A DNA stretch of 64,000 bases from Escherichia phage vB_Eco_mar004NP2 (NC_048205.1), one strand, 5' to 3'; positions 6,614 to 31,645 are shown, numbered from the stretch's first letter. The notes: generated by a model from the letters alone, not told the origin. A program made the numbers and translations.

Positions 6614-6650
6614 AGCCCAGCCTGCACTTTTGCGACTGGGCTATTTTTGT
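6614..6650 (+). terminator. rho-independent terminator
   Basis: hairpin GCCCAGC...CTGGGC followed by TATTTTTGT. Confidence 0.6.
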
Positions 6651-6663
6651 AATAAAATTTTAG

Positions 6664-6692
6664 TTGCATAGATGCCCAAACTTTTGTATAAT
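6664..6692 (+). promoter_or_regulatory. sigma70 early promoter (-35 TTGCAT, 17 bp, -10 TATAAT)
   Basis: consensus hexamers immediately after terminator. Confidence 0.55.
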
Positions 6693-6723
6693 ATACTCAT
6701 AGATTGAGGCAATAGGATTAAAT

Positions 6724-7916: not shown

Positions 7917-8359
7917 TGTGGAAATGGTTTGTAGACTTAGTTTGGGATAATAAGATGTATATCCTGGGAGCAGGTCTAGCGATAGGCATCGGATTCGGTG
8001 CTTATCACTTAGTTAATAAGGTTGAGACTCTAGCAGGTGATCTTGCAGCAGCTACTAAAAAGATCTCTTCTCTAGAAACCTCCCTTAATAATGTGAGGGC
8101 TGAGAGTGAACTTCGTGAGACTCGAATGAATCAGTATTTCACAATGAATAATGTTTCGCAAGCAGATCTAGACAAGAAAATTAATCAGCTTGATAAAGCA
8201 CTTAGTCGTCAAGATATTATAGCTGCAAAGCCTGGATTGGTTACATTAATTGCTAAAAAGCAGAGTAAGGAGTTCGAGGAAAGATTAGCATGTTTAACTG
8301 GAAACTTGGAATACTGCTCGCAGCCGCAATCACAATCACAGGCTGTGCACAAGAAATAA
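7916..8359 (+). CDS. membrane-anchored coiled-coil protein (possible i-spanin-like)
   Basis: N-terminal TM helix then coiled-coil-like region; 3' end overlapped by a lipoprotein gene. Confidence 0.4.
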   Translation: MWKWFVDLVWDNKMYILGAGLAIGIGFGAYHLVNKVETLAGDLAAATKKISSLETSLNNVRAESELRETRMNQYFTMNNVSQADLDKKINQLDKALSRQDIIAAKPGLVTLIAKKQSKEFEERLACLTGNLEYCSQPQSQSQAVHKK

Positions 8360-8643
8360 AGCCAGAACCTACCCATGAACTACCAACAGCTCATGTGGAC
8401 TGGCCTAAAGGACTTCAACCTTGTAGCTTTGATTTCAAATTTGAAAAGAAATTAGCTACAAACGGTGAAGATGGTGTAGTAGTAGTCGTACCATATAAAG
8501 ATTGGAATATGTTGGCAAAATGCCGCGAGGCAGAATATTCATATATCTCACGACTGACAAGTATGGTTTGCTTCTACCGCCAAGATTTGCAAGAAAAACG
8601 TTGTTTAGTATATTATCCACCAATTAACAATAGGAAAGATTAA
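8290..8643 (+). CDS. lipoprotein (possible o-spanin-like), 117 aa
   Basis: signal peptide with lipobox ITGC; gene starts inside upstream ORF in another frame. Confidence 0.4.
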   Translation: MFNWKLGILLAAAITITGCAQEIKPEPTHELPTAHVDWPKGLQPCSFDFKFEKKLATNGEDGVVVVVPYKDWNMLAKCREAEYSYISRLTSMVCFYRQDLQEKRCLVYYPPINNRKD

Positions 8644-9395
8644 TGTCAGTATTAGTCGGTTTACATGGTGAAGCTGGTTCGGGAAAAGATACCGTTGCAA
8701 AATTAATTATCGATTGGTGTAATGACACGTATCCAACGTGTTTACCCCGTCGTTACAGTTTTGCCAAGCCCGTTTATGAACTTGCATCTGTAATCCTCGG
8801 TGTAACTCCAGAGTTTCTAGGAGAGCGCAGGGGAAAAGAGATTGACCAATGGTTTACGGTCACACAATCTCAATTGGAGCGAGCTAGAGACGTATGGTTT
8901 AAATACGGTATCGATAAGTTTGAAGACTTCTCGTACGTTTGGCCGATTTTTGAGGAAAAATATCTTAATCCTCAACAACTTATCTCAGAGAATAAAGAAG
9001 ACGGACTTTATAGTTTATTTATTTCTCCGAGAAAAATGTTACAGCTCGTAGGGACAGAGCTAGGAAGGCAGCTGGTACATGAACGCATTTGGCTCATAAT
9101 TCTGGAGCAATCCATCGCTAAAGACGACCCAGATGTCGCCGTAATAACAGATGTGAGATTCCCCAATGAAGGAGAGCTACTCAGAGAAACAAACCATTTA
9201 GATATGGATTCTTTGATAGTAAATGTAGTACCAGCTGAGCAGAAGTTCACTATTAAATCAGATCATCCATCTGAAAGTGGTATTCCTGCAAAATATATTA
9301 CTCACGAATTAGTTAATAAATTCGATGGTATCAATAACCTTAAACTAGAAGTTTATAACTTCTGTGACTTAGAGCTAGAACCACTAGTTGGATAA
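8643..9395 (+). CDS. deoxynucleoside monophosphate kinase (P-loop)
   Basis: N-terminal P-loop GLHGEAGSGKDT; size 250 aa matches T5-type dNMP kinase. Confidence 0.55.
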   Translation: MSVLVGLHGEAGSGKDTVAKLIIDWCNDTYPTCLPRRYSFAKPVYELASVILGVTPEFLGERRGKEIDQWFTVTQSQLERARDVWFKYGIDKFEDFSYVWPIFEEKYLNPQQLISENKEDGLYSLFISPRKMLQLVGTELGRQLVHERIWLIILEQSIAKDDPDVAVITDVRFPNEGELLRETNHLDMDSLIVNVVPAEQKFTIKSDHPSESGIPAKYITHELVNKFDGINNLKLEVYNFCDLELEPLVG

Positions 9396-9407
9396 TCAAG
9401 GATCGCT

Positions 9408-10007
9408 ATGACTAATAAAAAAGAAGAAAAGACTAACCTGTTTCACTCCATTCGCCAATCTAATGAGTATACCTTTTTCTTTGATGAAGAACTCGGTCCG
9501 CCGGATGAATACCGTGATTTATCAATGGTACTTATGCAAGCAAATGAGGACGACGAAATTAATCTGATGATTAATGGTCCAGGTGGTTATGTTGATACTG
9601 CTGCACAGTTATCTAACTTAATTGCTAATTGCCGTGGAACAGTTATAGGACATCTGGTTGGTCCTAGTGCTTCTGCTTACTGCACAATTTTCCTATCCTG
9701 TCATGGATGGGTAGTACATCCACATGCTACGCTAATGGGACACACGTTCTCTGGCGGATTCTGTGAGAAAGGTCAAGAAATCAAGAAAGCCTATGAATCT
9801 TACAACAAGTTCGTAGAAGATATGATGCTAGATGTCTACTATCCGTTCTTCTCAATAGATGAAATAGACGAGATGGTAAAAGACAACAAAAATATCTATC
9901 TAGATAGCAAGGAAATCCATAAGCGTATTGAAATCTTGGCGAAATATAGATCTGAGCAATATAATAAAATGCAGTTAACTCAATCTGAGGAGCACAACGA
10001 AGAGTAA
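9408..10007 (+). CDS. ClpP-like serine protease
   Basis: LMINGPGGYV motif resembling ClpP INSPGG; 199 aa. Confidence 0.45.
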   Translation: MTNKKEEKTNLFHSIRQSNEYTFFFDEELGPPDEYRDLSMVLMQANEDDEINLMINGPGGYVDTAAQLSNLIANCRGTVIGHLVGPSASAYCTIFLSCHGWVVHPHATLMGHTFSGGFCEKGQEIKKAYESYNKFVEDMMLDVYYPFFSIDEIDEMVKDNKNIYLDSKEIHKRIEILAKYRSEQYNKMQLTQSEEHNEE

Positions 10008-10017
10008 GTAATTTTAA

Positions 10018-10047
10018 GCCAGGGTTAAGTACCCTGGCTTTTCTTTT
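10018..10047 (+). terminator. rho-independent terminator
   Basis: hairpin GCCAGGGT-TAAGT-ACCCTGGC plus TTTTCTTTT. Confidence 0.65.
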
Positions 10048-10109
10048 ATCTAAAATTCTTCTTGACAACGACATAATTTTATGCTCCAAGTGTAACATTT
10101 AAAAACCCA

Positions 10110-10138
10110 TTGAAATTTTCCTCCAAAATTAGTATAAT
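10110..10138 (+). promoter_or_regulatory. sigma70 promoter (-35 TTGAAA, 17 bp, -10 TATAAT) for the lysis cassette
   Basis: hexamers and spacing; followed by GAGGAGG RBS. Confidence 0.5.
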
Positions 10139-10163
10139 GGTACTGGTTAGAGGAGGTTACAAA

Positions 10164-10820
10164 TTGGAAAAGTTCTTACAATTATTAACAGTACTGCTCC
10201 AAGAAGCGAAAGACCCAGCATCGCTTCTTAAACGTCTGCTAACTATCTTAGTTGCTGTCATTATTTTCTTATTTGTTAGTAATACTAGTGAAGTAATGTC
10301 ATTCTTAAAGACTTTTTCCACGTCTGCAGTTTTACAGGATTTACAAACCCAGAGGATAGATAACTTCCCTAATGTGGCGAGGGAAAAGAGCATGGTTCTC
10401 TTCTCTCAGACGGGTGCAGATGCTGTTTTTGTAGTCAAGTATAAACCAGATGCTATCAATGATTATTCCAATATTATTGCATGGGAAAGTAATGCGCAAT
10501 TAGATAGGGCTGACTTGGCCGATAAAGCGGTAAATAAAACGTCTGAATTATACAGACGTCATTTAGAGGGCTTTAACTACGCATCGGATTTAAGTGTAAG
10601 AGTAAATAAATATATGGGGTTAAATATACCTGCGTTTAAAAACGTTACTTTTAATTACATATACACTTGTCCATACTTCAATCTAAAAAATATCTATGCT
10701 GGGTACATTGGTATTGCTTGGAAAGATAATCCGGTAGATACAGCTGATTCTGAACAGTTCAAGGAATATTTAGCAAAGCTCTGTTCCCCACAACAGAGAT
10801 CTTTAGGTAGGTCAATATGA
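10164..10820 (+). CDS. holin (218 aa, TTG start inferred)
   Basis: TTG 7 nt after GAGGAGG; single TM helix (LLTILVAVIIFLFV); immediately upstream of endolysin; the track ATG at 10110 lies inside the promoter. Confidence 0.5.
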   Translation: MEKFLQLLTVLLQEAKDPASLLKRLLTILVAVIIFLFVSNTSEVMSFLKTFSTSAVLQDLQTQRIDNFPNVAREKSMVLFSQTGADAVFVVKYKPDAINDYSNIIAWESNAQLDRADLADKAVNKTSELYRRHLEGFNYASDLSVRVNKYMGLNIPAFKNVTFNYIYTCPYFNLKNIYAGYIGIAWKDNPVDTADSEQFKEYLAKLCSPQQRSLGRSI

Positions 10821-19744: not shown

Positions 19745-20629
19745 ATGTATAACTTTAAAGATAAACTAAGACAAAATGCTGGTAAAACAAAACCTAAAGA
19801 GAATAATAATGTTCCTAATGCCAAAGTATTACCATTTCCAGAACTGTCTCAAGAAGAAAAAGATAAGTTAGCATTTATGTTTGATGCTCTTCTAGGGCTA
19901 AGTGGACGTTTATATTCCTCACTCAATATTAATGAGAAACGTCTAGTAGAGATGTTCTGTAAACGTTACCAAGTTACTTCAAAGGGCAATTCTTATAAAG
20001 AAGGTGAAAAAGCATTTACAGTCTTAAAGATTAGCGCATATGCACATCGTTTCTTAGTTTATGGATTGCAAATGGAATACTTCACCATCCCATCATTTAG
20101 CTCTTTCCATATCTTTGAAGATGAACGAATGAATATTGATGATCTCTATGGGGATACGTACAAATACTCAGGAAGTCCATTCCACGATGCATTAAGGAGC
20201 TACCCTACTAGTTACTTACCAGTTAGGGCATCTCAAGGTAAAGCTAGCGTTTTTGCTGTTTACTCAGGATCTAAAGCATCGGATCTAGAAACTTATATAT
20301 TTAAAGAGCGTAAATCTGTACTTCCAGATGAAGCATTGTATAGCAATCCATTGCTTCCAGAAAAAGAACCAGAGAAAATTGATGTAACCCCACCAATCCC
20401 ATCTGATTCTCAATATTTAATTTATGAGAAACAAGTTAAGTTATCCCTAGAAATTGGGTTAGTTACACCGCTTGCTGCAGCGTTCATAAATAGATACCTA
20501 GAAATCCCAGATGAGTTCCACCAACGTTATAATACGAATATTCAGATAACGGATGAATTAATTGCGTTAGCAAAAGATACACCTACTGACACTGAGGCGT
20601 ATCAAAAAGCATACCAAGAGTTATTATAA
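19745..20629 (+). CDS. hypothetical protein, 294 aa; last gene before the higher-GC island
   Basis: ORF with RBS AACGGGAGATAATA. Confidence 0.6.
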   Translation: MYNFKDKLRQNAGKTKPKENNNVPNAKVLPFPELSQEEKDKLAFMFDALLGLSGRLYSSLNINEKRLVEMFCKRYQVTSKGNSYKEGEKAFTVLKISAYAHRFLVYGLQMEYFTIPSFSSFHIFEDERMNIDDLYGDTYKYSGSPFHDALRSYPTSYLPVRASQGKASVFAVYSGSKASDLETYIFKERKSVLPDEALYSNPLLPEKEPEKIDVTPPIPSDSQYLIYEKQVKLSLEIGLVTPLAAAFINRYLEIPDEFHQRYNTNIQITDELIALAKDTPTDTEAYQKAYQELL

Positions 20630-20685
20630 TATTCTGCATGTCTCGGTGCACAATACCTGTACCGAGACTCAAATACAAACTCTCG

Positions 20686-20714
20686 TTGACAGATAGCTAA
20701 ATGTATGTTATCAT
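20686..20714 (+). promoter_or_regulatory. strong sigma70-like promoter (-35 TTGACA, 17 bp, -10 TATCAT) firing into a non-coding repeat field
   Basis: perfect -35 and 5/6 -10 with ideal spacing; no ORF with an RBS downstream for 1.6 kb. Confidence 0.45.
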
Positions 20715-21162
20715 AACTCTATGAGTTAATAGAATTAACCATTTAGAGTTGCCACACAGAAGGTGTGGTGGTTCAGTAATTTAAAATTACTAACTTGTAG
20801 CGGAGGATACGGAGCGACAGGACAAGTTAATAAGTAATTTAATATAAATTGCTAGAAACATCACGAGACCTTCTGGCGGGGGCAAAGCTCTATATGAGAA
20901 CCCTGGGGGATCTTATATTTAAAATAAAAGTAAAACTTTTGACCATATAATTTACATTCAAGATGATACACCTGTTGCCGCTCATCTGCTAGGATGGCAC
21001 AACACTTTCTTCTAGACTCCTAAGTTTCTAGGAAAACTCTTACACTCTAGGGCAGTTTCTCTCCAACGTTACATATCCTAGGCCGGTTTAATACAGGGCG
21101 GTTATTGGGAGGGCGGTTATTTCTAGAAGACATTTTTCCAAAACACATTTCCAGAAATTACT

Positions 21163-21764
21163 GTCGGATTCGCACATTGTGTTTCTAGAAATTTATGGTC
21201 GGATTTGCACAATTGCCTAAGTTTTCATGGACACATAATCTCCTGAAAATGGCAGCATTATTTCGGGCCGAAGGCCCATGATTGCCTGAGTTTTTAGAGC
21301 CACAAGAATTTTCACTTGTCAAGCTATTTTGCCACCTTTAGCAAATAAAATTTTACTTTATCTCCACTAATCTCAAATTAACCCAAATCTTCTCAACTCT
21401 TCCCCCAAAAACGCAGCAAATCAGGCGTTGCACGCCACCCATGCTGCTCCTCCAGTTTCTCCACTTATTTTCTCTCGCTCTCTCATCTTCTCCTCAAACC
21501 TATACAATCACACACCCTCCAATCGAAGTCACAAAAATCTTGTCGGATTCGCACATCTTAATCCTAGAAAAACCGTGTCGGATTTGCACATATCCCACAG
21601 GATTCGAACGCAGTTCGAGATTGCTGGAGTTTTTGGGAAAATTCATTGTCGGATTTGCACACTATAAAAATTTTTGGGGTCGGATTTGCACACTACCAAA
21701 AATTGTCGGATTCGCACATACACGCCCGCGCGTAATCCATGGTGGCAAATGTCGGATTTGCACA
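21163..21764 (+). repeat. array of 8 direct repeats GTCGGATT(T/C)GCACA
   Basis: copies at 21163, 21198, 21542, 21577, 21648, 21679, 21705, 21751, all same orientation; candidate injection-stop or protein-binding array. Confidence 0.8.
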
Positions 21765-21796
21765 AAAGCGCAGGGCAATTGCCCTGCGCTAAATAC

Positions 21797-21991
21797 GAAT
21801 GATAATGAGAATCATTCGTATTTAAAAAGCGGAATAAGAATGATAATAGTTCTCATTTAGAAAGTGAAATGAGAATCAATCTCATTTAAGAAAGGGAATG
21901 AGAACTATTCAAAAAATGAAATGATTCTCATTTAAAAAATGGAATGATTATCGGTTAGATAGTGAAATGCGAATGATAATGATTCTCATTT
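21797..21991. promoter_or_regulatory. cluster of about 6 imperfect palindromes AATGAGAAT-N-ATTCTCATT (operator-like; resemble Fur-box halves)
   Basis: copies near 21804, 21845, 21866, 21897, 21918, 21971; further copies at 22328-22348 and 31322-31339. Confidence 0.6.
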
Positions 21992-22096
21992 AAGAATGGA
22001 AGCGAGAAACACTATTATTTAAGTTACCCACAGACTTATTAACAGCACGATTTGATTTGACAGAATCCTAGCCATTTTGAGGCGTTATCAACAGAC

Positions 22097-22105
22097 TTAT
22101 CCACA
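22097..22105 (+). promoter_or_regulatory. DnaA box TTATCCACA
   Basis: exact 9-mer consensus inside left IR arm. Confidence 0.6.
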
Positions 22106-22113
22106 GCTTATCC

Positions 22114-22133
22114 TACTGTATAAATATACAGTA
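22114..22133. promoter_or_regulatory. LexA (SOS) box-like palindrome TACTGTATAAATATACAGTA
   Basis: CTGT-N8-ACAG with AT-rich spacer, 19/20 match to E. coli consensus TACTGTATATATATACAGTA. Confidence 0.55.
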
Positions 22134-22389
22134 TTCCTACGCAGTGAATAATTCTAATATAGCGTTAAAACGTCCTAAATCGCATTCTAACGCGCTTAAT
22201 TTTGATGGGGATACTAAAACAAGGGCAAAATTGGAGGAGGCTTAAAAATTAGTTAGCTTGCTAACGATCACACAAGGCGACACGTAACACCCTAATCATT
22301 AGCAGGCTAACCATCACGGGCGCGGTTAAATGAGAATCACTCTCATTTGAGAATTGGGGGCACTCCCTGGTAGTTGCGCCCCGTTATTA

Positions 22390-22584
22390 TTAGTCTGGTA
22401 GTCGATGCGTGATCTTTTCCTCCTCCCCGTAGGAATCCACCAAATGCTGATAATAACCATCGTGATCATAAATCACTTTATCATACTCGCCACGCTCGAC
22501 CGCTTGTCGGTTTTCCGGCGTATCGGGCACGTAAAAAACATCAACCATTGTACTGATTTTGGTTACAACAATTTTATTGCTCAT
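22390..22584 (-). CDS. cassette gene 7, hypothetical acidic protein (64 aa from internal ATG)
   Basis: ORF track 22390..22614 uses TTG; ATG at 22584 has AGGGG RBS. Confidence 0.4.
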   Translation of the reverse strand: MSNKIVVTKISTMVDVFYVPDTPENRQAVERGEYDKVIYDHDGYYQHLVDSYGEEEKITHRLPD

Positions 22585-22686
22585 AATAACCCCTAGTAAA
22601 TATATTTTTGCCAATAGTGGCGAACGTTATCGCCACCAGCGGAATCATTTGCAGCCTCAACATTACCCGCGAAAATATATATAATC

Positions 22687-23031
22687 TCATTGCGCCACCT
22701 TTCGAAACGCTGTTTCAATACTATCCGCAGTGGATTGAATATACGCGCCTTTCATTATCAGGCGCTCGGTGCATATCTTGCGAAAAATATTAATAAAATC
22801 ATCTTCATTTTCTGCAATTAACGCCTCACCCATGACCTGAACGTCGCAAGATGCAAAGGTCAAAAATTGAAACGCTAGTTCACGGGCAACGACCGCATTG
22901 ATTTTATAATGCGCCTTGCCTTCATAAATATTAATAACGCCCTTATAAGCTGGGGAAAGCTGATTTAAGTAGTTTGCTAGTAATGCCGGACGGCAATTAG
23001 CAACAAAACGATTGCCTTCATAAATTACCAT
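22687..23031 (-). CDS. cassette gene 6, hypothetical protein, 114 aa
   Basis: ATG at 23031 with GGGGAG RBS, 1 nt after upstream stop; the track start 23070 is a TTG that would overlap the upstream gene. Confidence 0.45.
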   Translation of the reverse strand: MVIYEGNRFVANCRPALLANYLNQLSPAYKGVINIYEGKAHYKINAVVARELAFQFLTFASCDVQVMGEALIAENEDDFINIFRKICTERLIMKGAYIQSTADSIETAFRKVAQ

Positions 23032-23032
23032 T

Positions 23033-23245
23033 TTATAGCACTCCCCGAAACGCAGCGTAAAAGGTGGCAAAATGTTTAACTGTTTCAGCTATCACGTTGC
23101 CCCGTTTATCGAATTTTTTCTCGGTAACACGGAAGGCGTTTTTATTTCGCGCTACATATTCAATTTTACAATCTTCCCGCTCGAACGTGTTAACGTCCAC
23201 CAGCTTAAAGCCTTTTGAACGTGCAAGGGAAACGTTACGAATCAT
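23033..23245 (-). CDS. cassette gene 5, hypothetical basic protein, 70 aa
   Basis: ORF directly after small TM ORF. Confidence 0.45.
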   Translation of the reverse strand: MIRNVSLARSKGFKLVDVNTFEREDCKIEYVARNKNAFRVTEKKFDKRGNVIAETVKHFATFYAAFRGVL

Positions 23246-23247
23246 TT

Positions 23248-23397
23248 TTATTCTCCTTTACTAGTCATGCAGCCCAGCAGATAAGAAAATACAGCGATAC
23301 CCGCACCAATAATAACCGCGTGAACGCCGAAAGCTATTGCAAAAAGTGATAAAATAGCGCCCAAGATACCTGCTAGAATAGCTCGAAAAATAACCAT
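23248..23397 (-). CDS. cassette gene 4, small hydrophobic protein, 49 aa (not in ORF track)
   Basis: ATG after AGGAGG RBS; MVIFRAILAGILGAILSLFAIAFGVHAVIIGAGIAVFSYLLGCMTSKGE, two predicted TM helices. Confidence 0.35.
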   Translation of the reverse strand: MVIFRAILAGILGAILSLFAIAFGVHAVIIGAGIAVFSYLLGCMTSKGE

Positions 23398-23446
23398 TTG
23401 TGATAGCCTCCTAGTTATCGGGGGATATTATATCCCCCGTTATTAA

Positions 23447-23677
23447 TTACATTAAAACAATTTTTGCAGCTTGTTTTTTGGTGCAATGTTCCGCCTTCAG
23501 GGTATCCAGCAAAAAGCCAGCCGTTTGCTGATCGATTTTATCGGCGTTATATAGTTCCTGAATGGTATTATAGGTTTTAGCAATACCGAACTCCTGCACC
23601 ATTTCATAGATGACAGCACGATTAGATACCCAGCCTTGCGCGGTAAACAGATGACTAGCAGAAGAATAAGCAACCAT
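23447..23677 (-). CDS. cassette gene 3, hypothetical protein, 76 aa
   Basis: internal ATG at 23677 with GGAGG RBS preferred over track start 23710. Confidence 0.45.
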   Translation of the reverse strand: MVAYSSASHLFTAQGWVSNRAVIYEMVQEFGIAKTYNTIQELYNADKIDQQTAGFLLDTLKAEHCTKKQAAKIVLM

Positions 23678-23783
23678 TTTAAGCCTCCAAATTTTTGGGA
23701 AAATTTTCAACCGTCCTTAAACGGTGTAAAGGCATTATAACAAAAAAGGCCACCAATTATGGCGACCTTTACAAAACTTTACA

Positions 23784-24278
23784 TTAAACTACTTGTAATG
23801 TTTCAATATTGAAACATCGTTTCAATTCGTCATGCAAAACAGCGTATTCATCCCATCGGGTACTATCAGGGATATAAACAAGCTGTTTTAGTCGGTTTGC
23901 GTATATTACCGCTTTATTTCCGATTATTTCAGCGCCACCATATTTAATAATTAATTTCATGACGGAATTAATAGGATCGCCGCCGTTTACATATGTGCCG
24001 GATTTACTTAATTGATAATGATAAAGGCTTGCATATACATTATCATTCTCATACCATTCGCCCGTTTCCTCATCTTCATAGCCATCGCTACCAAAACGAG
24101 AAGCATTATCAACAGCCATTTCATGAGCGAAAGCGTCGAGATCCGTACCAGCAGGAACAAAATATTCCTCAGTATTCCCTTCACCGCAATAGCCAGTATG
24201 ACAATCGACCAAAATGATCATATCATGTTTAGCCTTGCTCACTTCCCCTAGCGAAAACCCATATTTTTCCTCAGCCAT
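23784..24278 (-). CDS. cassette gene 2, hypothetical acidic protein, 164 aa
   Basis: ATG with AGGAGG RBS; no recognisable motif. Confidence 0.55.
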   Translation of the reverse strand: MAEEKYGFSLGEVSKAKHDMIILVDCHTGYCGEGNTEEYFVPAGTDLDAFAHEMAVDNASRFGSDGYEDEETGEWYENDNVYASLYHYQLSKSGTYVNGGDPINSVMKLIIKYGGAEIIGNKAVIYANRLKQLVYIPDSTRWDEYAVLHDELKRCFNIETLQVV

Positions 24279-24343
24279 TTATTAGCCTCCTATTAATTAA
24301 TAAGGGAATAGTAAAGCGGGGAAACAATCCCCGCTAAATATTA

Positions 24344-25336
24344 TTACTCGCTTTCGGTGCTAGTGGTAAAAGTAGAAATATCGATACCTTTCACCATTTC
24401 ATCAATCATTTCAGCGATGTTAAAACTTTGCACCATTTCTAGCATTGCCGCTTCCATAGCTGCGCCTGCTACCGCTTTCGCTTTCTGGTTATTCGGGGCG
24501 TACTGGTCAACCGCTACGCTCAGCAGGTTAGCAATAACTACCCGACCAATCGGCGTATCAATATAACCTTTAATCATAAACGGCGCTTTTTTAGCCGCTA
24601 CTTTCGTGATTTGAGTCAATGCAATTTTGCCAGCTTCCAGTTTTGCAGCATTTACAACAGCGGATTTATTAGCGGCAACGATATTAGCGATCTTGGTCAT
24701 GGTATTATTTCCTTTGTTTTCAGTAGTTTGAGTGTTAACGCTTTGAGTGTTAGAATTTACAGCATGTTTTTCCGTGTTGTCAATAGGCTGATCTTCCTCC
24801 TTCCAGAAAGAAAAGCCCGCGCTTTCAATATCCCCATCATATACATAAGGGTACACTTCCGACGGTAACAAAAAATTACCGTTATCATCAAAGGCCATTA
24901 CAGCCGCGAAACGATACCCGTCACAATCCGACCGATTCCAGCCAACTGATAAATAACGCCAAAATGAATCAAGAAAATTTTCAATATCATAAAGATCATT
25001 GGGGTTGGCTTCATAATTTTCTATTGAAAAAACTTCTAAGCCTGCCCCAGTATCATAGGCTTTTACTGTGCTACCTTTTACGATTATGAAATCAGTATCC
25101 GGCCCTCGACTAGTGAGCAATTGATAATCTTGATTATATAAAACAAGCGTTGCCCCTTGTTTATATAACGGTAGAAAACTATTCATATCATAGGCATCGA
25201 AATCACCAAAAAAGTTTTGGTGAATAGTTTCAGCCTTGTTAATAAAATGTTTAATGCTGGTTGTTCTGCTACCGTCCAGCAGGTTACGCAGCGCACCTTT
25301 TAAGACGGTTGCGTTATCTGGTTTATATAGCCTCAT
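24344..25336 (-). CDS. cassette gene 1, hypothetical two-domain protein, 330 aa (Ala/Lys-rich C-terminal third)
   Basis: ATG with GAGGGAGG RBS; preceded by own promoter. Confidence 0.6.
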   Translation of the reverse strand: MRLYKPDNATVLKGALRNLLDGSRTTSIKHFINKAETIHQNFFGDFDAYDMNSFLPLYKQGATLVLYNQDYQLLTSRGPDTDFIIVKGSTVKAYDTGAGLEVFSIENYEANPNDLYDIENFLDSFWRYLSVGWNRSDCDGYRFAAVMAFDDNGNFLLPSEVYPYVYDGDIESAGFSFWKEEDQPIDNTEKHAVNSNTQSVNTQTTENKGNNTMTKIANIVAANKSAVVNAAKLEAGKIALTQITKVAAKKAPFMIKGYIDTPIGRVVIANLLSVAVDQYAPNNQKAKAVAGAAMEAAMLEMVQSFNIAEMIDEMVKGIDISTFTTSTESE

Positions 25337-25367
25337 TTGTTGGCCTCCCTCGTTAATCGGTGAGTGA

Positions 25368-25397
25368 ATGATAAAGGCAATTTTCTAGCATAGGCAA
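25368..25397 (-). promoter_or_regulatory. sigma70 promoter of antisense cassette (-35 TTGCCT, 18 bp, -10 TATCAT on - strand)
   Basis: hexamers read on reverse complement, AT-rich upstream element, about 30 nt upstream of gene 1 start. Confidence 0.5.
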
Positions 25398-25472
25398 ATA
25401 TTATTTTACCTTTTTATTTTCCTTGCCTAGCGCCTAGTTTTATGCTAACCGCGCAGCGGTACAGTAAAGAGC

Positions 25473-25510
25473 AAAACACGGTGAAGCCACCAGGGCGACG
25501 GGTGAAGGCT
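25473..25510. terminator. hairpin GTGAAGCC...GGCTTCAC, terminator-like on both strands
   Basis: stem with T-rich flank on either strand, between right IR and cassette promoter. Confidence 0.4.
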
Positions 25511-25601
25511 TCACTTTAATATTACCCCACCGCATTTAGCTCGTTAGAAAGCGTTTTAGGCCGCCTAAAATTGATTGCAGTTGTTAACACTACCTTTTTA
25601 C

Positions 25602-25712
25602 CCTGTATATTTATACAGTAGGATAACATGTGGATAAGTCTGTGGATAAGTCCTTATATCGTCGCCTATCGTGTCAAATCATTTTGTGCTGTTAATAAAC
25701 TTGTGGATAACT
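25602..25712. repeat. right arm of inverted repeat; contains LexA-like box CTGTATATTTATACAG (25603-25618) and three DnaA boxes
   Basis: TGTGGATAA at 25629, 25641, 25702 (reverse complement of TTATCCACA). Confidence 0.8.
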
Positions 25713-25994
25713 TAAATGATAGTGGTTCTCACTTAGGACGATAGTTTCTTATAGTTATTATTTCTATCGGTTACGATTTCTTATAATTATTATTTCTCAT
25801 TAATTTATAAGTATATTATATATCATGAAATAGTTAGTTGGCTAATGAGATTTTCCGTGATTAATAGTCTGCTAACAGTTCCGGCTGTTACAATCCACCA
25901 GCATGATTATCATCCTAGCAACTATTAGTCTGCTATCTTTCCGATGCATACTAACAAATAAAAGTCAATTAATTTATTTCATAAAATAAGTAGT

Positions 25995-26027
25995 TATCCA
26001 CTGGAAAATAAAAGTCAAGTGGATAAC
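25995..26027. promoter_or_regulatory. pair of DnaA-box-like sites (TTATCCACT / AGTGGATAA) in inverted orientation
   Basis: 8/9 matches to TTATCCACA; TTATCAACA also at 26061. Confidence 0.45.
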
Positions 26028-26482
26028 TAGGAAAATTTCATTTTTGCTTTTGGGGATAAGTTATCAACAAGGCTAGAATGCGCCTAAAACGCCCTATAAC
26101 GCGATGAAGTTTTTAGCCATGCCATTGCATTGCCTACCCTCGTTTATCGCTACCACGAGCTTTTTAGTTTTTGTCAAGTAGGGCAAGGCAAATATAAATG
26201 AAAAAATTACTTGCCAACCTGCTGGGTTTTATGGTATTCGCGCGCCCGTTTCCTTTAATTTTAGTGCGCCGCGCCCAGGTCGCCGCACGGTGTCCGGTGG
26301 CATTTTGTCTTTACGTTTCTTTACAAAAATAAGGTTGCGCCATTTTTACTATTTGCTATTATTTATCTCGTAGGGCGGCAATGACGAACTACACGGCGGG
26401 AAGTTTACCGCCGCGCTCTTTAAAAATTGGGTACATCTTAAAGTCTATCGGCGGTAAACTTATATTATAAGGAATCGCAGAT

Positions 26483-26686
26483 ATGAAACAAACTTTATTG
26501 ATCACTGGTAAACCAGCTAAAAAATTAGATGGTACTACTAAAAAATTGTTGACAATAGCCCAGCAATCCGTAAAATACCGATTTGCTCAGTACAAGAAAG
26601 GCCGCCAGCAGGGTTTAGAAATGATCTGGCGTAATATTATGATCGACCTGAAAGAAAATCATAAAAAACTGCAAAAAACAGTTTGA
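26483..26686 (+). CDS. pre-early small basic protein, 67 aa
   Basis: ATG after TAAGGAATCGCAG; host-like codon usage. Confidence 0.45.
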   Translation: MKQTLLITGKPAKKLDGTTKKLLTIAQQSVKYRFAQYKKGRQQGLEMIWRNIMIDLKENHKKLQKTV

Positions 26687-26916
26687 CACCCTAGCCGATA
26701 GGCTTTAAGATGTACCCAGTTCGATGAGAGCGATAACTTGATACAATTTGACGGTTAGGTGATTCCCCATAAATCATCCTGCCCCCTAACTGGGATATAG
26801 CAGCCTGCGTGGAGTTCCTTAAATTGATTATAGCGGTGAGCGGATTGTTGCTTATTACCTGCTACTTTCTAGCAGGTAATGCGGAACAATCCCCTAAATA
26901 ACTTGGAGTTTATACT

Positions 26917-27168
26917 ATGCAAAACGTTATTACCGCGCCTAAAATTGGTCAATCCGTTTTTATTCCTTTCGTTACTAAAACGGATGAACTAACCGGAAAA
27001 GCCGAACGTATTAAAGGTGCGGCGCTTATGCCGTTTGATACAATCGACGCGGTATACGCTGAAAATGAACGTAGTAACAACGGCAAAACCGTTTTTAGCG
27101 TTCGCGTTAAATCCGGCGACGTTGTAAAGGTTGTACAGCGTAACGAAAAATGGGAAGCTGTAGCGTAA
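26917..27168 (+). CDS. pre-early hypothetical protein, 83 aa
   Basis: conserved TIR TTGGAGTTTATACT-ATG; followed by hairpin. Confidence 0.5.
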   Translation: MQNVITAPKIGQSVFIPFVTKTDELTGKAERIKGAALMPFDTIDAVYAENERSNNGKTVFSVRVKSGDVVKVVQRNEKWEAVA

Positions 27169-27264
27169 TAGTGTTACTTTTATATCCCCCAGTAGTTCGG
27201 GGGATATAACGATTAACATTATGTTAATCTTATCCCTTAAATTAAACTAATAGGAGTTTTTACC

Positions 27265-27672
27265 ATGACTAACGTTAAAACCGCAAAATTTGCTTGGAAT
27301 GAAGAAAACACTCAAAAAGCTGTTTCTATGTACCAGCAGTTAATTAATGAAAACGGTTTAGATTTCGCAAATAGCGACGGTTTAAAAGAGATTGCAAAAG
27401 CAGTGGGCGCGTCTTCTCCCGTGTCTGTTCGCTCAAAATTGACCAGCGCAAAAGCGTATCAGAAAAGCGATAAGCCTCGCAAAGTTGGCGGCGGTAGCTC
27501 AATCCGCAAAGCTCACTATGTACGCGTTATCGCTAAACATGCTATTGATTCCGGCATTATTAAAGACGCCGACGATCTGGCAAGTCTGGAAAGTGCAAAA
27601 CTTGAAACGCTGGACGCCGTAGCGCAACTGTTAGGCGTTGCCGATGAAGTAAAACAGGCCGCAGGTGAATAA
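27265..27672 (+). CDS. A2: pre-early protein, 135 aa; candidate A2-like DNA-binding protein
   Basis: size and position next to A1-like gene as in T5; assignment by synteny only. Confidence 0.35.
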   Translation: MTNVKTAKFAWNEENTQKAVSMYQQLINENGLDFANSDGLKEIAKAVGASSPVSVRSKLTSAKAYQKSDKPRKVGGGSSIRKAHYVRVIAKHAIDSGIIKDADDLASLESAKLETLDAVAQLLGVADEVKQAAGE

Positions 27673-27728
27673 ATTTAATTAGTGGGGAATATTCCCCACT
27701 ATAATTTCCCTTTGACTGGAGTTTTAAA

Positions 27729-27926
27729 ATGATCTTTTACCCCACTGAATCGTTAATTTTAGGCTTATTTATTATGGCGGCCTCGTTATTATTCGCTTAT
27801 TTTCAAAATGATTTAGACTCATATTATTTTAAACGTAAGTCTAAATTGGCAAAGCGTTTAGGTCTGATTTGTTTTATTGCCGCCATTGCTTGTGGTGTTA
27901 GTTCTAGCCTTATGCCTTTAAATTAA
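27729..27926 (+). CDS. pre-early small membrane protein, 65 aa
   Basis: two hydrophobic helices; TIR CTGGAGTTTTAAA-ATG. Confidence 0.45.
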   Translation: MIFYPTESLILGLFIMAASLLFAYFQNDLDSYYFKRKSKLAKRLGLICFIAAIACGVSSSLMPLN

Positions 27927-28023
27927 TGTTGCAAATTATAACGCCTATTATTCAAGGCGTTATATTTGGCAATATTTGCCAATAACAAACGTTTTTTAAT
28001 CCCTTTAATGGAGTTTTATTAAT

Positions 28024-29688
28024 ATGATTATTTCCGCAGAAAAACAAACCGTTATCCTGAAAATGGCCGCTGACTTTAATTTCTATGGTAAACGTCTGCG
28101 CGCTACTAAACTGGAGGTCTGCGACGATATATCAAAAGCGGTCTACGATACAACAAAACACTCGACCGCTATCTGCGACTGGTTGGAAGCAAATAAACCA
28201 GCTAAACCGAAAGCGGCGAAAGTAGCAAAAGCCATTAAAAACGATGAGCGTCCAGAAGCGGCGGGGATTGTTTCTAGCACGGTTGAGCAATGGGAAGTAA
28301 AGCAGGGTAAACGCTTTATTATTACGTCGATTCAGAATAATACTTTCCCGCATAAAAACTTTTTAGCCTCATTGGAGCAATTTGCTAAATATATCGGCGC
28401 TGATTTGCTGGTTAGCAAGTTTATTTATAACAAAAACGGTTTTCAAAATGGCGAGGGTGCAGAAGGAATAAAATATGATTCCGCATTTGACAAATATATC
28501 TGCAATAAAAACGTGTTTTTAAATAACCGCCGTTTTGCTTTCATGGCTGAAATTAACGTTTTGCCAACCGCAGATTATCCGCTTTCTGGATTCGCTGAAA
28601 CTGCAACGGCGCTTAATCTGGAAGGTCTGGCAATTGGTCACGCTAAAATTACCGCTGAAAGCGTGCCAGCTTTAAAAGGTGAAGTAGTGCGCCGTATGTA
28701 CTCAACCGGAACGGCAACGCTCAAAAACTACATTCAGCAGAAAGCAGGACAAAAGGCCGAGGCGCTGCATAACTTCGGTGCGCTAATTGTCGAGTTCGAC
28801 GAGGACGGGGAATTTTTTGTACGCCAGCTCGAAACGATGGACGAAAGCGGGGTATTTTATGATCTGAATGTGTGCGCTACTCCTGCCGGATGCTATGAGA
28901 CATCGGGGCATGTTTTAGGCTTGCAATACGGCGATATTCACGCAGAAAAACTAGATGATGATTGTGCCGTTGCGTCATGGGCTGGCGAAAATAGCTTGCT
29001 TGATATTCTCAAGCCTAAATATCAGTTTATCCATGACGTGCATGATTTTACATCACGCAACCATCACAACCGCGCATCCGGTGTATTCCTAGCAAAACAA
29101 TACGCCGCCGGACGTGATAAGGTATTAGATGATCTTATCGATACGGGGCGCGTGCTGGAATCAATGGAACGTGATTTCTCGCAAACAATCATTGTTGAAT
29201 CTAATCACGATTTGGCGCTATCCCGTTGGCTTGATGATCGTAATGCTAACATTAAAGACGATCCAGCAAACGCGGAACTATATCACCGCCTAAATGCCGC
29301 GATTTATGGAGCTATTGCAGAAAAAGACGATACTTTCAACGTGCTAGATTATGCGCTGCGCAAGGTTGCAGGTTGTGAGTTTAACGCCATTTTTCTAACT
29401 ACTGACCAATCTTTCAAGATTGCAGGCATTGAATGCGGCGTACACGGTCACAACGGCATTAACGGCAGCCGTGGCAATCCTAAACAATTTAAGAAATTGG
29501 GCAAATTAAACACCGGACACACTCACACCGCCAGCATTTATGGCGGCGTGTATACCGCTGGCGTAGCTGGTAGTCTGGACATGGGTTACAACGTTGGCGC
29601 GTCAAGCTGGACGCAAACGCATTTAATTACCTATGCAAACGGTCAGCGCACTTTGATTGACTTTAAAAACGGTAAATTCTTTGCGTAA
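28024..29688 (+). CDS. A1: A1-like pre-early protein (554 aa, metallophosphoesterase-type motifs)
   Basis: size close to T5 A1; motifs GDIHAEK, HDFTSRNHH, ESNHD, GHTHT; TIR ATGGAGTTTTATTA. Confidence 0.55.
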   Translation: MIISAEKQTVILKMAADFNFYGKRLRATKLEVCDDISKAVYDTTKHSTAICDWLEANKPAKPKAAKVAKAIKNDERPEAAGIVSSTVEQWEVKQGKRFIITSIQNNTFPHKNFLASLEQFAKYIGADLLVSKFIYNKNGFQNGEGAEGIKYDSAFDKYICNKNVFLNNRRFAFMAEINVLPTADYPLSGFAETATALNLEGLAIGHAKITAESVPALKGEVVRRMYSTGTATLKNYIQQKAGQKAEALHNFGALIVEFDEDGEFFVRQLETMDESGVFYDLNVCATPAGCYETSGHVLGLQYGDIHAEKLDDDCAVASWAGENSLLDILKPKYQFIHDVHDFTSRNHHNRASGVFLAKQYAAGRDKVLDDLIDTGRVLESMERDFSQTIIVESNHDLALSRWLDDRNANIKDDPANAELYHRLNAAIYGAIAEKDDTFNVLDYALRKVAGCEFNAIFLTTDQSFKIAGIECGVHGHNGINGSRGNPKQFKKLGKLNTGHTHTASIYGGVYTAGVAGSLDMGYNVGASSWTQTHLITYANGQRTLIDFKNGKFFA

Positions 29689-29744
29689 ATAATTAATCCC
29701 CTAGCGGCTTGAAATATAGCCGCTATTACAGGAGCTAAATTAGA

Positions 29745-30002
29745 ATGAAAGTTACATTACCCAAAACGCTAGACGAAAAAGCATTTATTTCACCGGATGA
29801 AATGGAATCCGATAAAGTTTACAGCTTCGGGCCTATTCTAGCCGCCAAAACTAATACTGATGGGATTATTACGGTCGATTATCGTGATAATGATATTGTA
29901 CCCTTTGACGATGATGGTGCTTTTTATGAGTGGCTAAGCGATAATAATTTACCCGTAAACGGTGAATTAACGCCGTACCAGATGCAGATTATTATCAAAT
30001 AA
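29745..30002 (+). CDS. pre-early acidic protein, 85 aa
   Basis: ORF with CAGGAGCTAAATTAGA RBS. Confidence 0.5.
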   Translation: MKVTLPKTLDEKAFISPDEMESDKVYSFGPILAAKTNTDGIITVDYRDNDIVPFDDDGAFYEWLSDNNLPVNGELTPYQMQIIIK

Positions 30003-30040
30003 ATTAAATCCATTATTAAACTAATTGGAGTTTTATAAAC

Positions 30041-30433
30041 ATGAAAAAGCAAAATATTCCATTTGACCGCGCTCAATCCTCAATTGTTCTGGTTTATTCT
30101 AATGGTGAGCGTTACCACGTCGAGGCGGGGCACGTTATTGATGAATTGCTAGATTTCAATGACGCTTTGCAGGTTACAACATTTGCATATATGCAAGGCA
30201 AACTAACTAGCCATATTAAAGCAAAAGGCGTTTATGTTGACACGGTGAAACAAGAAACGATTATCATCGACGCAGTAAAATCCGGTCTAACCTTTGCAGT
30301 TGTCGCGCCTTGCCCCGCTTGCCTTGATGATCAATTGATTTCTGCAAAAGTATATACTTGTGCGGGGATTCGTTCCCATGTATCAGGTGAGGATGTTAGT
30401 TTTATCGCCGATGCGTTGGCTTATGGTCTTTAA
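30041..30433 (+). CDS. pre-early hypothetical protein, 130 aa
   Basis: TIR TTGGAGTTTTATAAAC-ATG. Confidence 0.5.
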   Translation: MKKQNIPFDRAQSSIVLVYSNGERYHVEAGHVIDELLDFNDALQVTTFAYMQGKLTSHIKAKGVYVDTVKQETIIIDAVKSGLTFAVVAPCPACLDDQLISAKVYTCAGIRSHVSGEDVSFIADALAYGL

Positions 30434-30512
30434 TAGTTAATTTATTATTACCCGCTTATAAATAGCGGGTAATGCTGAATTAATCTAATCCCTTAAATGG
30501 AGAACGTAACAA

Positions 30513-31247
30513 ATGAATAAAGCTATCATGAATCTTTCCCGCAGCTTCCCGCATATTTCCCGCGTCATGATTTGGGATTTAGACGGCACTATCATTAATT
30601 CTTTCCATCGTGTAGCACCCTGCTTTGATAGCGAGGGCAATTTAGATTTAAATAAGTATAAAAATGAAGCGTGTAAACACCATTTAATAATGCAAGATAC
30701 TTTATTGCCATTGGTTGAATATATGCGCCAGTGCATGAATGACGCAAATACTTTAAACATTATTTGCACCGCTCGACTGATGAGTAAGTCGGACTATTAT
30801 TTCTTGCGTAAACAAGGGTTGCGCGGTCGTGGTAATAGTAATATCCGCGTATTTTCCCGCGATACACTACACAAATATTTTAAAGCTGATAAGGTTAGCG
30901 AAATATACCACAGCAAAGACGCAGTATATAAATCTTATTATTTTGAATTATTTAAACAGTTATATCCTAACGCTGATTTTACAATGATTGATGATCATAA
31001 AGGCGTGCTATCAGCGGCAGCGTCATACGGATTTAAAACGCTGGACGCACAAGCCGTTAATGATATTCTATCAATCGGCGTGGCATTGATAGGTGAAACC
31101 TTTATTGATGAATCTCTCGACGATGATAATGATTATCAATTCCTAGCTGACCGTTTAAAATTATGCTGGGAAGGTATGACCGAGGAAGAACGCGCAGAAT
31201 ATAGTTGCAGTCCTCAACAATATATTGAGAAATTAAAAGTTGCCTAA
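30513..31247 (+). CDS. dmp: 5'-deoxyribonucleotidase (HAD-like), Dmp-like
   Basis: 244 aa as in T5 Dmp; HAD motif I in VMIWDLDGTIIN; last gene of the island. Confidence 0.55.
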   Translation: MNKAIMNLSRSFPHISRVMIWDLDGTIINSFHRVAPCFDSEGNLDLNKYKNEACKHHLIMQDTLLPLVEYMRQCMNDANTLNIICTARLMSKSDYYFLRKQGLRGRGNSNIRVFSRDTLHKYFKADKVSEIYHSKDAVYKSYYFELFKQLYPNADFTMIDDHKGVLSAAASYGFKTLDAQAVNDILSIGVALIGETFIDESLDDDNDYQFLADRLKLCWEGMTEEERAEYSCSPQQYIEKLKVA

Positions 31248-31399
31248 CAATTAAAGTTGAAATAGTCACGGTGTGTAATGATACCATGCCGTGACTATTA
31301 GCCTGCTAAGTACCGGGCGGTAATGAGACTCATTCTCATCTGGGGGGCCACTGGACACACCCACGCGTACGTAATCCAAAGAAATTGGCAAAAGTCAAA

Positions 31400-31645
31400 T
31401 TAGCGCATAGAAGGGTCATCAAACCTGTATTCTGGTCTGAACTCACGGAATCTCTTCCGCGACGCCCGAGATCCATCCGACCACTCCCGCTCAAACTCCG
31501 CACGTTTCTCGTCAAACTTCCGCTCCCTTTCCGCAATCTCCCGCGTCACTCCCGCAATATATTTACGATGCTTATTGATTGCCGCAGTCGTCCCGAAAAC
31601 TCCCGTGAGTATCCCGATAATAAAAGCAATTACAATACTAAACAT
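31400..31645 (-). CDS. small TM protein with highly charged tail, 81 aa
   Basis: ORF track; N-terminal TM helix. Confidence 0.4.
   Translation of the reverse strand: MFSIVIAFIIGILTGVFGTTAAINKHRKYIAGVTREIAERERKFDEKRAEFEREWSDGSRASRKRFREFRPEYRFDDPSMR

Follow-up and report, generated by a model that had tools for sequence, protein, structure and literature searches.

The present analysis concerns the segment 20640-31400 of a 64,000-nucleotide stretch of DNA (hereafter the window) from Escherichia phage vB_Eco_mar004NP2 (NC_048205.1), which an earlier reading made from the sequence alone (the sequence-only reading) had described as a compositional island with host-like codon usage, an initiation motif of its own and a palindrome after every gene. 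By homology and gene order, this segment is the first-step-transfer (pre-early) terminal repeat of a T5-type phage (Demerecviridae) plus 0.66 kb of adjacent spacer; it is an already known locus, the T5 pre-early segment of two-step injection, and the 'island' is thereby explained. We consider it probable that its features are jointly those of a T5-like pre-early terminal repeat whose codon usage has been driven by the supply of tRNAs and whose intercistronic hairpins act as RNA elements other than terminators. In T5, the terminal-repeat segment enters the cell first and injection then stalls, with the remaining genome, including the tRNA cluster, still outside. The pre-early genes, which form two divergent operons with A2, A1, dmp and about 12 small genes, are expressed by unmodified host RNA polymerase and ribosomes, and the DNA carrying the tRNA genes enters only after synthesis of A1 and A2. 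Without recognising the locus, the sequence-only reading had inferred the core of this biology rightly, namely genes that have to be expressed by host machinery before phage tRNAs exist.

A megablast search with 20640-31400 returned 488 phage records, nearly all of them T5-like (Salmonella, Escherichia and Klebsiella phages), the top match being Salmonella phage PMBT29 with 99.0% identity over the full length. The segment is collinear, in reverse orientation, with positions 1-10219 of T5 (AY543070), which are annotated as the left terminal repeat, and its gene order matches that of T5 gene for gene (dmp, T5.002, T5.003, A1, T5.005, A2, T5.007, P-H22 and the injection-stop-signal, or iss, region). 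The homologues of A1, A2 and dmp share one operon in conserved order, and PHROG profiles assign A1 to phrog_1745 (E=1.5e-244), A2 to phrog_1725 and the dmp family to phrog_415. The likeness to T5 and BF23 comprises an identical order of genes (dmp, 002, 003, A1, 005, A2, 007, 008), two divergent operons, the same repeat ends and, in the non-coding iss region, arrays of repeats together with DnaA boxes and a 132-nt inverted repeat. T5 itself differs, however, with ~90% nucleotide identity to the window phage, and the latter is without the HNH endonuclease (hegG) cassette of T5 and that cassette's promoter; no blast match to the T5 hegG homing endonuclease and its promoter was obtained when window ~25740-26480 was compared with T5 5411-6012.

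On the basis of homology to complete T5-like genomes, the terminal repeat spans 21297-31356 (~10,060 bp): in 6 complete genomes of T5-like phages, the right-end copy of the repeat starts at the position corresponding to 21297, and left-end copies reach as far as the position corresponding to 31356. Of the borders proposed earlier, the right one (31400) lies only 44 nt from the repeat end at 31356, whereas the left one (20640) marks the end of the last early gene and falls 657 nt outside the repeat start. At 31356/31357 the outer repeat end abuts the right-hand unique end, with its Cor-like and receptor-binding genes, and therefore the source assembly is circularly permuted, the two repeat copies having been collapsed into one. 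Thus, in difference to T5 and BF23, the window holds one collapsed repeat copy attached to the right-hand unique end, and the terminal duplication in vB_Eco_mar004NP2 is deduced from its relatives.

The switch in codon choice at the borders of the repeat is pronounced. AGA and AGG (together AGR) account for 2 of the 79 arginine codons within the repeat (2.5%) as against 296 of 702 (42%) outside it (p=6e-15), and similar depletion was observed for ATA (9% vs 27%, p=2e-7), GGA (10% vs 25%, p=3e-5), AAG (17% vs 33%, p=9e-6) and TCT (19% vs 40%, p=7e-7). On examination gene by gene, the switch was found to coincide with the repeat borders: the share of AGR, ATA and GGA among arginine, isoleucine and glycine codons is 0-15% in all 15 repeat genes and 27-45% in the genes just outside both borders (Mann-Whitney p=5e-7 vs repeat genes). 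The abrupt change in codon choice that had been reported for this segment is therefore real, and CTG, GCG, CCG and CGC do rise in the repeat, as had been stated. Overall synonymous codon fractions correlate with those of E. coli at r=0.81 in the repeat, 0.56 in early genes and 0.53 in late genes, the early and late genes correlating with each other at 0.96.

The abrupt switch in GC content that had been claimed alongside is an overstatement. A shift does exist, with a GC of 0.402 in 20640-31400 vs 0.379 in 1-20639 and 0.390 in 31401-64000, and among all 10.76-kb stretches of the window the segment ranks close to the highest (0.405, for the stretch beginning at 20851), with 2.8% of them reaching such a value. 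It is small, however, and at a resolution of 1 kb the region is not distinguishable (0.364-0.439 inside vs 0.336-0.442 outside). The G+C content at third codon positions (GC3) is 0.365-0.386 in the repeat vs 0.312 in early and 0.275 in late genes, while GC1 and GC2 barely differ. The Sharp-Li codon adaptation index (CAI) is 0.31-0.33 in the repeat vs 0.255 in early and 0.271 in late genes. The check by GC and codon adaptation that the sequence-only reading had proposed yields a clear discontinuity in codons and a weak one in GC. ATC and ATT are unchanged in the repeat, TAC and TTC are lower, and C/T-ending two-fold codons show no shift. The behaviour of these codons argues that the shift is neither a general GC3 drift nor a classic optimisation for high expression.

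The codons that are depleted correspond to the tRNAs that the phage itself supplies. The window has nine phage tRNA genes at 241-3013 (+ strand), which belong to a larger cluster and lie in second-step-transfer DNA outside the repeat; in PMBT29, which is nearly identical, the remaining tRNA genes are located just upstream of these nine. The PMBT29 cluster includes Arg-UCU, Gly-UCC, Lys-CUU, Pro-UGG, Thr-UGU, Ala-UGC and Leu-UAA/UAG, and counting the window copy at 2938-3013 together with the PMBT29 annotation there are three CAU tRNAs. All phage tRNA genes are outside the repeat, and the depleted codons match the phage anticodons Arg-UCU, Gly-UCC, Lys-CUU, Pro-UGG, Thr-UGU and Ala-UGC. The earlier proposal that these genes are translated before phage tRNAs exist is accordingly well supported, as the codons that are avoided are those which phage tRNAs read, while codons that report plain GC3 or expression level have not moved.

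For a comparison across genera, Serratia phage Kamaji (L057, A1 62% identity) and Klebsiella phage VAC51 (L056, A1 73%) were used; more distant A1 homologues (36-47% identity; L041-L054, IMG/VR) were set aside, being neither syntenic with the T5-type repeat nor comparable in intergenic architecture. In Kamaji, AGR falls to 9% in the repeat vs 26% outside (p=5.5e-5) and GGA to 2% vs 18% (p=3.5e-10). In VAC51, AGR falls to 7.5% vs 28% (p=1.6e-5) and ATA to 9% vs 19% (p=0.004), with GC3 equal inside and outside the repeat (0.463 vs 0.465). We conclude that the codon 'island' reflects selection for translation with the host tRNA pool alone and not foreign origin. This selection has purged the host-rare codons that need phage-supplied tRNAs (AGA/AGG, ATA, GGA, AAG, CCA and ACA), and the slight rise in GC3 and GC is a by-product of it.

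Two other origins of the codon shift have to be considered. If the region had been acquired horizontally, from the host or from another phage, its codon usage would be a legacy of the donor, and GC and GC3 slightly above the flanks, as well as synonymous fractions nearer to those of E. coli (r=0.81), would be in keeping with this. However, the repeat has no megablast match among 5,426 complete E. coli genomes, the segment is conserved and syntenic in every T5 relative examined, other genera included, and its overall GC of 40% is far from the ~51% of the host. Foreign DNA is dismissed because the depletion recurs in two other genera, in VAC51 without a GC3 difference, and because C/T-ending two-fold codons are not shifted; we regard acquisition as extremely improbable, and the notion of a foreign or host-derived island has to be given up. 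Ordinary selection for high or fast expression, without any part played by the absence of phage tRNAs, could draw on the fact that pre-early proteins have to be made within minutes, on the modestly raised CAI (0.31-0.33 vs 0.26-0.27), and on the Shine-Dalgarno sequence GGAG before 13 of the 15 repeat genes vs 28 of 73 elsewhere. Yet codons of the classic optimal set show no enrichment, with TAC and TTC lower and ATC unchanged; the highest CAI in the window (0.67) belongs to a late gene, although late genes as a class use AGA, ATA and GGA freely; and the set of depleted codons is the one that matches the phage anticodons. We therefore consider expression level an unlikely cause. Certain points nevertheless count against selection by tRNA supply. 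TCT is depleted though the stretch examined yielded no phage tRNA to match it, the depletion could partly be a general avoidance of host-rare codons in fast-expressed genes (the two ideas overlap), and the E. coli codon frequencies and CAI weights behind the values given above were entered by hand.

Codon usage in T4 varies with the time at which a gene is expressed. Phages that carry tRNA genes, T4 among them, resemble the T5-like phages in that the first-expressed genes are nearer to the host tRNA pool and later genes use phage-tRNA codons. In T5-like phages, however, the separation is physical, since the tRNA genes are outside the cell during the first expression, and the switch tracks the borders of the repeat. 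That codon use in phages can depend on the stage of expression is an established principle; a general survey of phage codon usage did not include T5 (PMC5683454).

The second property of the segment is a series of hairpins in the rightward operon, all on the + strand and all at the places given by the sequence-only reading. Hairpin 1 (27180-27209, 11 bp) begins 11 nt after the stop codon of its gene and has no U-tract, and hairpin 2 (27680-27701, 9 bp) begins 7 nt after the stop codon. Hairpin 3 (27937-27964, 10 bp) is followed by an AT-rich palindrome at 27966-27982, and hairpin 4 (29702-29725, 8 bp) lies between a conserved upstream element, the CCC box described below, and the next Shine-Dalgarno site. 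The fold of hairpin 5 (30447-30473, 10 bp) extends to 30434-30487. Hairpin 6 (31261-31299), with 11 perfect pairs (15 with G·U), lies 57 nt before the physical DNA end and is followed by a second structure at 31301-31348. The six stems are perfect over 8-11 bp and begin 7-13 nt past the stop codon, with folding free energies (dG) of -15 to -37 kcal/mol and z-scores of -2.9 to -6.2 relative to shuffled sequence. A palindrome had been claimed after every gene; such structures follow six of the seven genes of the rightward operon, with none after 29745-30002.

The earlier description of these hairpins as lacking a U-tract, given there for most of them, holds for the whole set: in a scan for a hairpin plus T-run, none of the six passed, there being 2-4 T in the 9 nt after each stem. 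Outside the repeat, 7-8 of 9-10 comparable hairpins have a T-run, most of the hairpins there being terminators of the canonical type with 5-8 T. In the annotations of T5 and EASG3, which were made with terminator predictors, terminators are placed in the leftward operon only and none in the rightward operon. An Rfam E-value search over 20600-31500 gave only chance-level matches, far below gathering scores. At 8-15 bp, the six stems are shorter than the ~20 bp or more of double-stranded RNA, frequently interrupted by an internal loop, that RNase III takes as substrate. As a separate observation, the heptamer CCCTAGC recurs in or next to intercistronic hairpins of Kamaji (L057; 19924, 21701 and 22084) and VAC51 (L056; 2299, 5998 and 9632). 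The repeat of Kamaji holds 7 of the 10 copies in that phage, each on the sense strand; in the window (29699) the heptamer is not clearly enriched.

Comparison of 37-40 T5-like loci shows the six hairpins to be maintained as RNA structures. The stems are kept by compensatory changes, while the loops are replaced wholesale. In formal counts on three stems (hairpins 1, 5 and 6), pairing is retained in 98-100% of cells and each stem has 4-6 pairs in which both sides have changed, whereas slid controls pair in 27-57% of cells, and the covariation score was reached by 0 of 500 shuffles. In hairpin 1, 100% of cells are paired and 4 pairs are changed on both sides, with all four Watson-Crick pairs occurring at one position; series such as U·G / C·G / U·A are found in the stems. 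Over the six stems there are 16 sense-strand G·U cells vs 4 A·C cells, a count based on haplotypes that are not independent, and this excess indicates selection on the sense RNA and not on a DNA or protein-binding palindrome. The same layout, in which most pre-early genes are followed by a GC hairpin lacking a T-run, is seen in Kamaji and VAC51, the intergenic sequences of which have diverged. The AT-rich secondary palindromes at 27211-27229 and 27966-27982 showed no covariation and were for that reason not counted as elements.

What these structures do is less certain. The rightward operon would be a single transcription unit of ~4.7 kb running off the DNA end, and host polymerase would pass the hairpins, which would block 3'-5' exonucleases or mark processing boundaries, stabilising the message of each cistron, and would insulate the next ribosome-binding site. 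For such a stabilising or processing role specifically, we put the chances at about even. Only at 30237, in the T5.002 homologue, does the rightward operon have a strong promoter-like site of its own, with none upstream of A1, and the essential A1 must therefore be transcribed through three hairpins. At hairpin 6, which is 57 nt from the physical DNA end, a terminator is needless in the left repeat copy, but a run-off transcript would need its 3' end protected, and this fits a stabilising role. The sequence-only reading had suggested RNA-stability or processing elements rather than terminators; the second half of this is the better supported, by the lack of a U-tract, by A1 lying beyond three hairpins, by covariation and by sense-strand G·U pairs. 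Public RNA-seq data exist for a relative, the Tequintavirus Bas33, with first-step transfer arrested (PRJEB101990, PMC13250531).

The hairpins do occupy the positions of terminators, 7-13 nt after stop codons, and the leftward operon has a canonical terminator between genes (23745-23770), so internal termination occurs in the repeat. The A1-dependent shut-off of pre-early genes has, moreover, no known mechanism (PMC10644984). They might accordingly be weak or conditional terminators or attenuators, which set up a gradient of expression or become effective at the A1-dependent pre-early shut-off. We find this doubtful, though deserving of some weight, as a U-tract is missing from all six, the terminator predictors applied to T5 and EASG3 called none in this operon, the essential A1 follows three hairpins and the operon offers no promoter-like site before it, and termination at the last hairpin is not needed in the left repeat copy. 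Since A2 is a DNA-binding protein and the non-coding parts of the repeat are full of functional DNA repeats and palindromes, it could also be supposed that the palindromes act as DNA, either bound by a dimeric protein (A2, for example) or extruded as cruciforms for injection arrest or repeat recombination. This is very unlikely, however, because stem bases vary freely with pairing kept (up to four Watson-Crick types) and loops are swapped, the opposite of what a sequence-specific operator would show; a sense-strand G·U pair is an A·C mismatch in DNA or on the other strand, and all hairpins are just past stop codons on the coding strand. Non-terminator RNA elements remain our preferred reading, with some points to be set against it: one cistron (29745-30002) is followed by a spacer without structure (z=-0.6), the AT-rich secondary palindromes lack covariation and are broken in some relatives, the haplotypes behind the G·U count are not independent, and read-through, processing and stabilisation are all steps that we infer.

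Known systems offer partial parallels. The early transcripts of T7 are cut at intercistronic RNase III hairpins, which then protect the 3' ends. The T7 early operon is alike in being a polycistronic early transcript of host polymerase with a stem-loop after nearly every cistron that is not a terminator, but the T5-like stems (8-15 bp) are too short for a classical RNase III site. Bacterial intercistronic stem-loops and repetitive extragenic palindromic (REP) elements block 3'-5' exonucleases; they too are stable, GC-rich, transcribed intergenic hairpins without a U-tract, in which structure is conserved and not sequence. The six phage hairpins differ from REP elements in having no common sequence, REP consensus or Rfam match.

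The ribosome-binding sites of the pre-early genes also have conserved features. GGAGTTT, which occurs 14 times on both strands of the whole window, serves as the Shine-Dalgarno sequence of 5 of the 7 rightward-operon genes (26905, 27253, 27718, 28010 and 30027), and 4 of these 5 sites fit the full initiation pattern that had been proposed. The pattern had been listed for six sites; the shared motif stands for five genes and not for six, as the site at 30495 reads GGAGAACG (dmp has GGAGAAC), and the T5.003 homologue (29745) likewise deviates with GGAGCTA. More generally, GGAG is present upstream of 13 of the 15 repeat genes vs 28 of the 73 others (p=0.001). GAGAGG, which had been named as the leader of early genes, precedes only 4 of the 73 genes outside the repeat, and that suggestion is not borne out.

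A second conserved element, absent from the sequence-only reading, is the CCC box AATCCC(T/C)T(A/T)AAT (AATCCCYTWAAT), which is found 0-11 nt upstream of GGAG. On the + strand its copies are at 26888-26899, 27231-27242, 27703-27714, 27998-28009, 29693-29701, 30006-30018 and 30487-30498, and on the - strand they precede the genes starting at 24278, 23677 and 23397. Allowing at most one mismatch, there are 6 matches in the window, of which 4 are sense-strand sites between pre-early genes. The looser pattern [AT]CCC...GGAG occurs before 8 of the 15 repeat genes vs 3 of the 73 others (p=1e-5), before 9 of 18 vs 0 of 46 in Kamaji, and before 7 of 15 vs 0 of 17 in VAC51. In alignments of close relatives, the CCC box is invariant and its flanks are variable. 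On our preferred reading, each pre-early ribosome-binding site consists of a GGAG Shine-Dalgarno sequence, a U-rich spacer and the conserved upstream CCC box. Two interpretations of the box were considered. A -10 element is rejected, since the box would offer TTAAAT or TTTAAT, without A at hexamer position 2, and no consistent -35 is seen in the sequence. As a partner of the Shine-Dalgarno sequence it does show CCC-GG(A)G pairing when some of the spacers are folded, with stems of 3-4 bp and a spacing of 0-29 nt, which is unconvincing.

Ahead of the rightward operon is a boxA-like element at 26394-26428 (+), in which a boxB-like hairpin GGCGG-N8-CCGCC is followed after 1 nt by CGCTCTTTAAAAATT (26414-26428). 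The leader of E. coli rrnA, which was fetched for comparison, has a hairpin and then TGCTCTTTAACAATT; lambda nutL, also fetched, reads CGCTCTTAAAAATT, and lambda nutR reads CGCTCTTACACATT. The element agrees with the boxA consensus GCUCUUUAACAA at 11 of 12 positions and has an identical 9-nt core, GCTCTTTAA, and the copies in Kamaji match at 12 of 12. The pattern GCTCTTTAA[AC]A has 41 matches in 37 T5-like loci (536 kb), all in the sense of the operon and 1.4-1.8 kb upstream of A1, and none elsewhere in those loci. When ten phage copies from three genera were aligned with rrnA, only GCTCTTTAA.AA.T was invariant. Kamaji (L057) has three boxA-like copies (16997 on the - strand, 17970 and 18408), of which one belongs to the leftward-operon leader, and two copies each are present in VAC51 (L056; 4476 and 4964) and in the L033/L035 phages (L033 6194 and 6526). 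A -10-like hexamer, TAAGAT or TAGAAT, precedes the start of a copy by 15-17 nt in each of Kamaji, VAC51 and L033/L035. The window and T5 have a single copy, which is upstream of the recognisable operon promoters (26549 and 26683 in the window), and the annotated upstream promoter of T5 belongs to the hegG cassette that is missing from the window.

The element at 26394-26428 looks like a Nus-factor antitermination signal, a putative assignment made from its sequence and surroundings. By means of boxA/Nus-factor signals, transcripts that are long or poorly translated are guarded against Rho (PMC7665894). An antitermination signal would fit read-through of the rightward operon. The likeness to the boxA of rrn operons, lambda nut sites and CRISPR leaders (PMC7665894) consists in the sequence block and, as in rrn, a variable hairpin directly upstream. 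These systems differ in that the phage element sits upstream of both recognisable operon promoters in the window and in T5. We know of no N-like protein for a boxA-like element of the T5 type.

Two promoter-like sites on the sense strand are found near the head of the rightward operon, at 26549-26576 (the homologue of T5 P-H22) and at 26683-26711 (+), the latter with TTGACA-17-TAAGAT; the P-D/E20 fragment of T5 maps to 26737-27060. A 39-nt inverted repeat (26414-26452 / 26694-26732), 82% complementary, flanks the T5.008 homologue, one arm being the promoter-like core and the other its reverse complement beside the boxA-like element, and Kamaji has the same arrangement. Further downstream is a long imperfect leader hairpin of ~26 bp (26839-26895, +), the 3' arm of which runs into the first CCC box. 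It is conserved in relatives and, unlike the intercistronic stems, is long enough to be a candidate substrate of RNase III. Like the CCC box, the leader hairpin and the boxA-like element are absent from the sequence-only reading.

The T5.008 homologue (26483-26686, +, 67 aa) contains the promoter-like site 26549-26576. The seven genes of the rightward operon (+ strand) are the homologue of T5.007 (26917-27168, 83 aa); A2, a DNA-binding pre-early protein (27265-27672, phrog_1725); the T5.005 homologue, a small membrane protein (27729-27926); A1, a DNA transfer protein of 554 aa (28024-29688, phrog_1745); the homologues of T5.003 (29745-30002, without a hairpin after it) and T5.002 (30041-30433); and dmp, a deoxynucleoside-5'-monophosphatase of 244 aa (30513-31247). 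The leftward pre-early operon (22390-25336, - strand) is homologous to the T5.011-T5.017 side and comprises 7 open reading frames with Shine-Dalgarno sites of the GGAGGC type, including a DUF7566 gene (24344-25336, -). Its promoter, at 25342-25420, is homologous to T5 6411-6489. On the same strand are an intercistronic hairpin of 8 bp with weak T content after it (24315-24335) and another of 9 bp without a T-run (23419-23439), the stem of which has likewise been rewritten in relatives by compensatory changes with pairing kept. The sole canonical intrinsic terminator found within the repeat by the hairpin-plus-T-run scan, at 23745-23770 (-), has an 11-bp stem followed by TTTTGTT and maps to the annotated T5 terminator 7534-7559.

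The non-coding parts are a unique spacer (20640-21296) between the last early gene, the T5.018 homologue at 19745-20629, and the terminal repeat (21297-31356), with a hairpin without a T-run at 20640-20668; a region homologous to the T5 iss region (21297-22389), with repeat arrays and palindromes; and the region between the divergent operons (25337-26482). One 132-nt inverted repeat, 80% complementary (22000-22131 / 25603-25734), brackets the entire leftward operon, and its arm at 22000-22131 carries TTATCCACA-type DnaA boxes. A 12-bp palindrome at 25991-26029 has DnaA-box-like arms (TTATCCAC). These two structures correspond to the IRC/IRD structures discussed for injection arrest in T5, and non-coding repeats of the iss type, the inverted repeat and DnaA boxes have been described for 25 T5-like phages (bioRxiv 10.1101/866236). 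The motif TGTCGGATT(C/T)GCACA is present in ~9 irregularly spaced copies at 21156-21771, an array that crosses the inner repeat border at 21297 into unique DNA. No nick-site consensus was found in the BF23 paper. Elsewhere in the window, a perfect 13-bp GC-rich hairpin with T-runs on both strands (60418-60448), between convergent genes, resembles a bidirectional intrinsic terminator, and its stem and the far-away terminator stem at 4061-4094 have a common arm, AAACCCCAG...CTGGGGTTT.

In the literature searched, the coverage of which is incomplete, we found no statement on the codon bias of T5 pre-early genes, no mention of hairpins in the T5 pre-early region, and nothing linking T5 to boxA or Nus factors. 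Within that scope, four observations appear to be new: the gene-exact, cross-genus depletion of codons that depend on phage tRNAs, the covariation support for hairpins without a U-tract, the pre-early-specific CCC box, and the boxA-like leader element. It is a speculative and rather improbable thought that the pre-early operons of T5-like phages carry a conserved and hitherto undescribed kit of RNA-level control elements made up of boxA, hairpins and CCC box. If this were true, boxA with its preceding hairpin would render host polymerase resistant to termination, hairpins without a U-tract would punctuate the message, and the CCC box, recognised by a phage or host factor, could be a handle for A1-dependent shut-off, like RegA/RegB of T4.

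The new elements will mainly be of interest to phage T5 specialists. For the engineering of T5-type phages, removal of a gene together with its hairpin or box may be polar. The hairpins, the CCC box and the boxA-like element are conserved, specific to pre-early genes and can be targeted by mutation, and they bear on open questions of T5 biology, namely by what means the pre-early message stays intact and is expressed so quickly, and what turns its expression off. T5 is, in addition, an unusually clean natural experiment on tRNA supply, in which 15 genes are translated while the tRNA genes are outside the cell, and the resulting codon signature tracks the repeat borders gene by gene and recurs in three genera.

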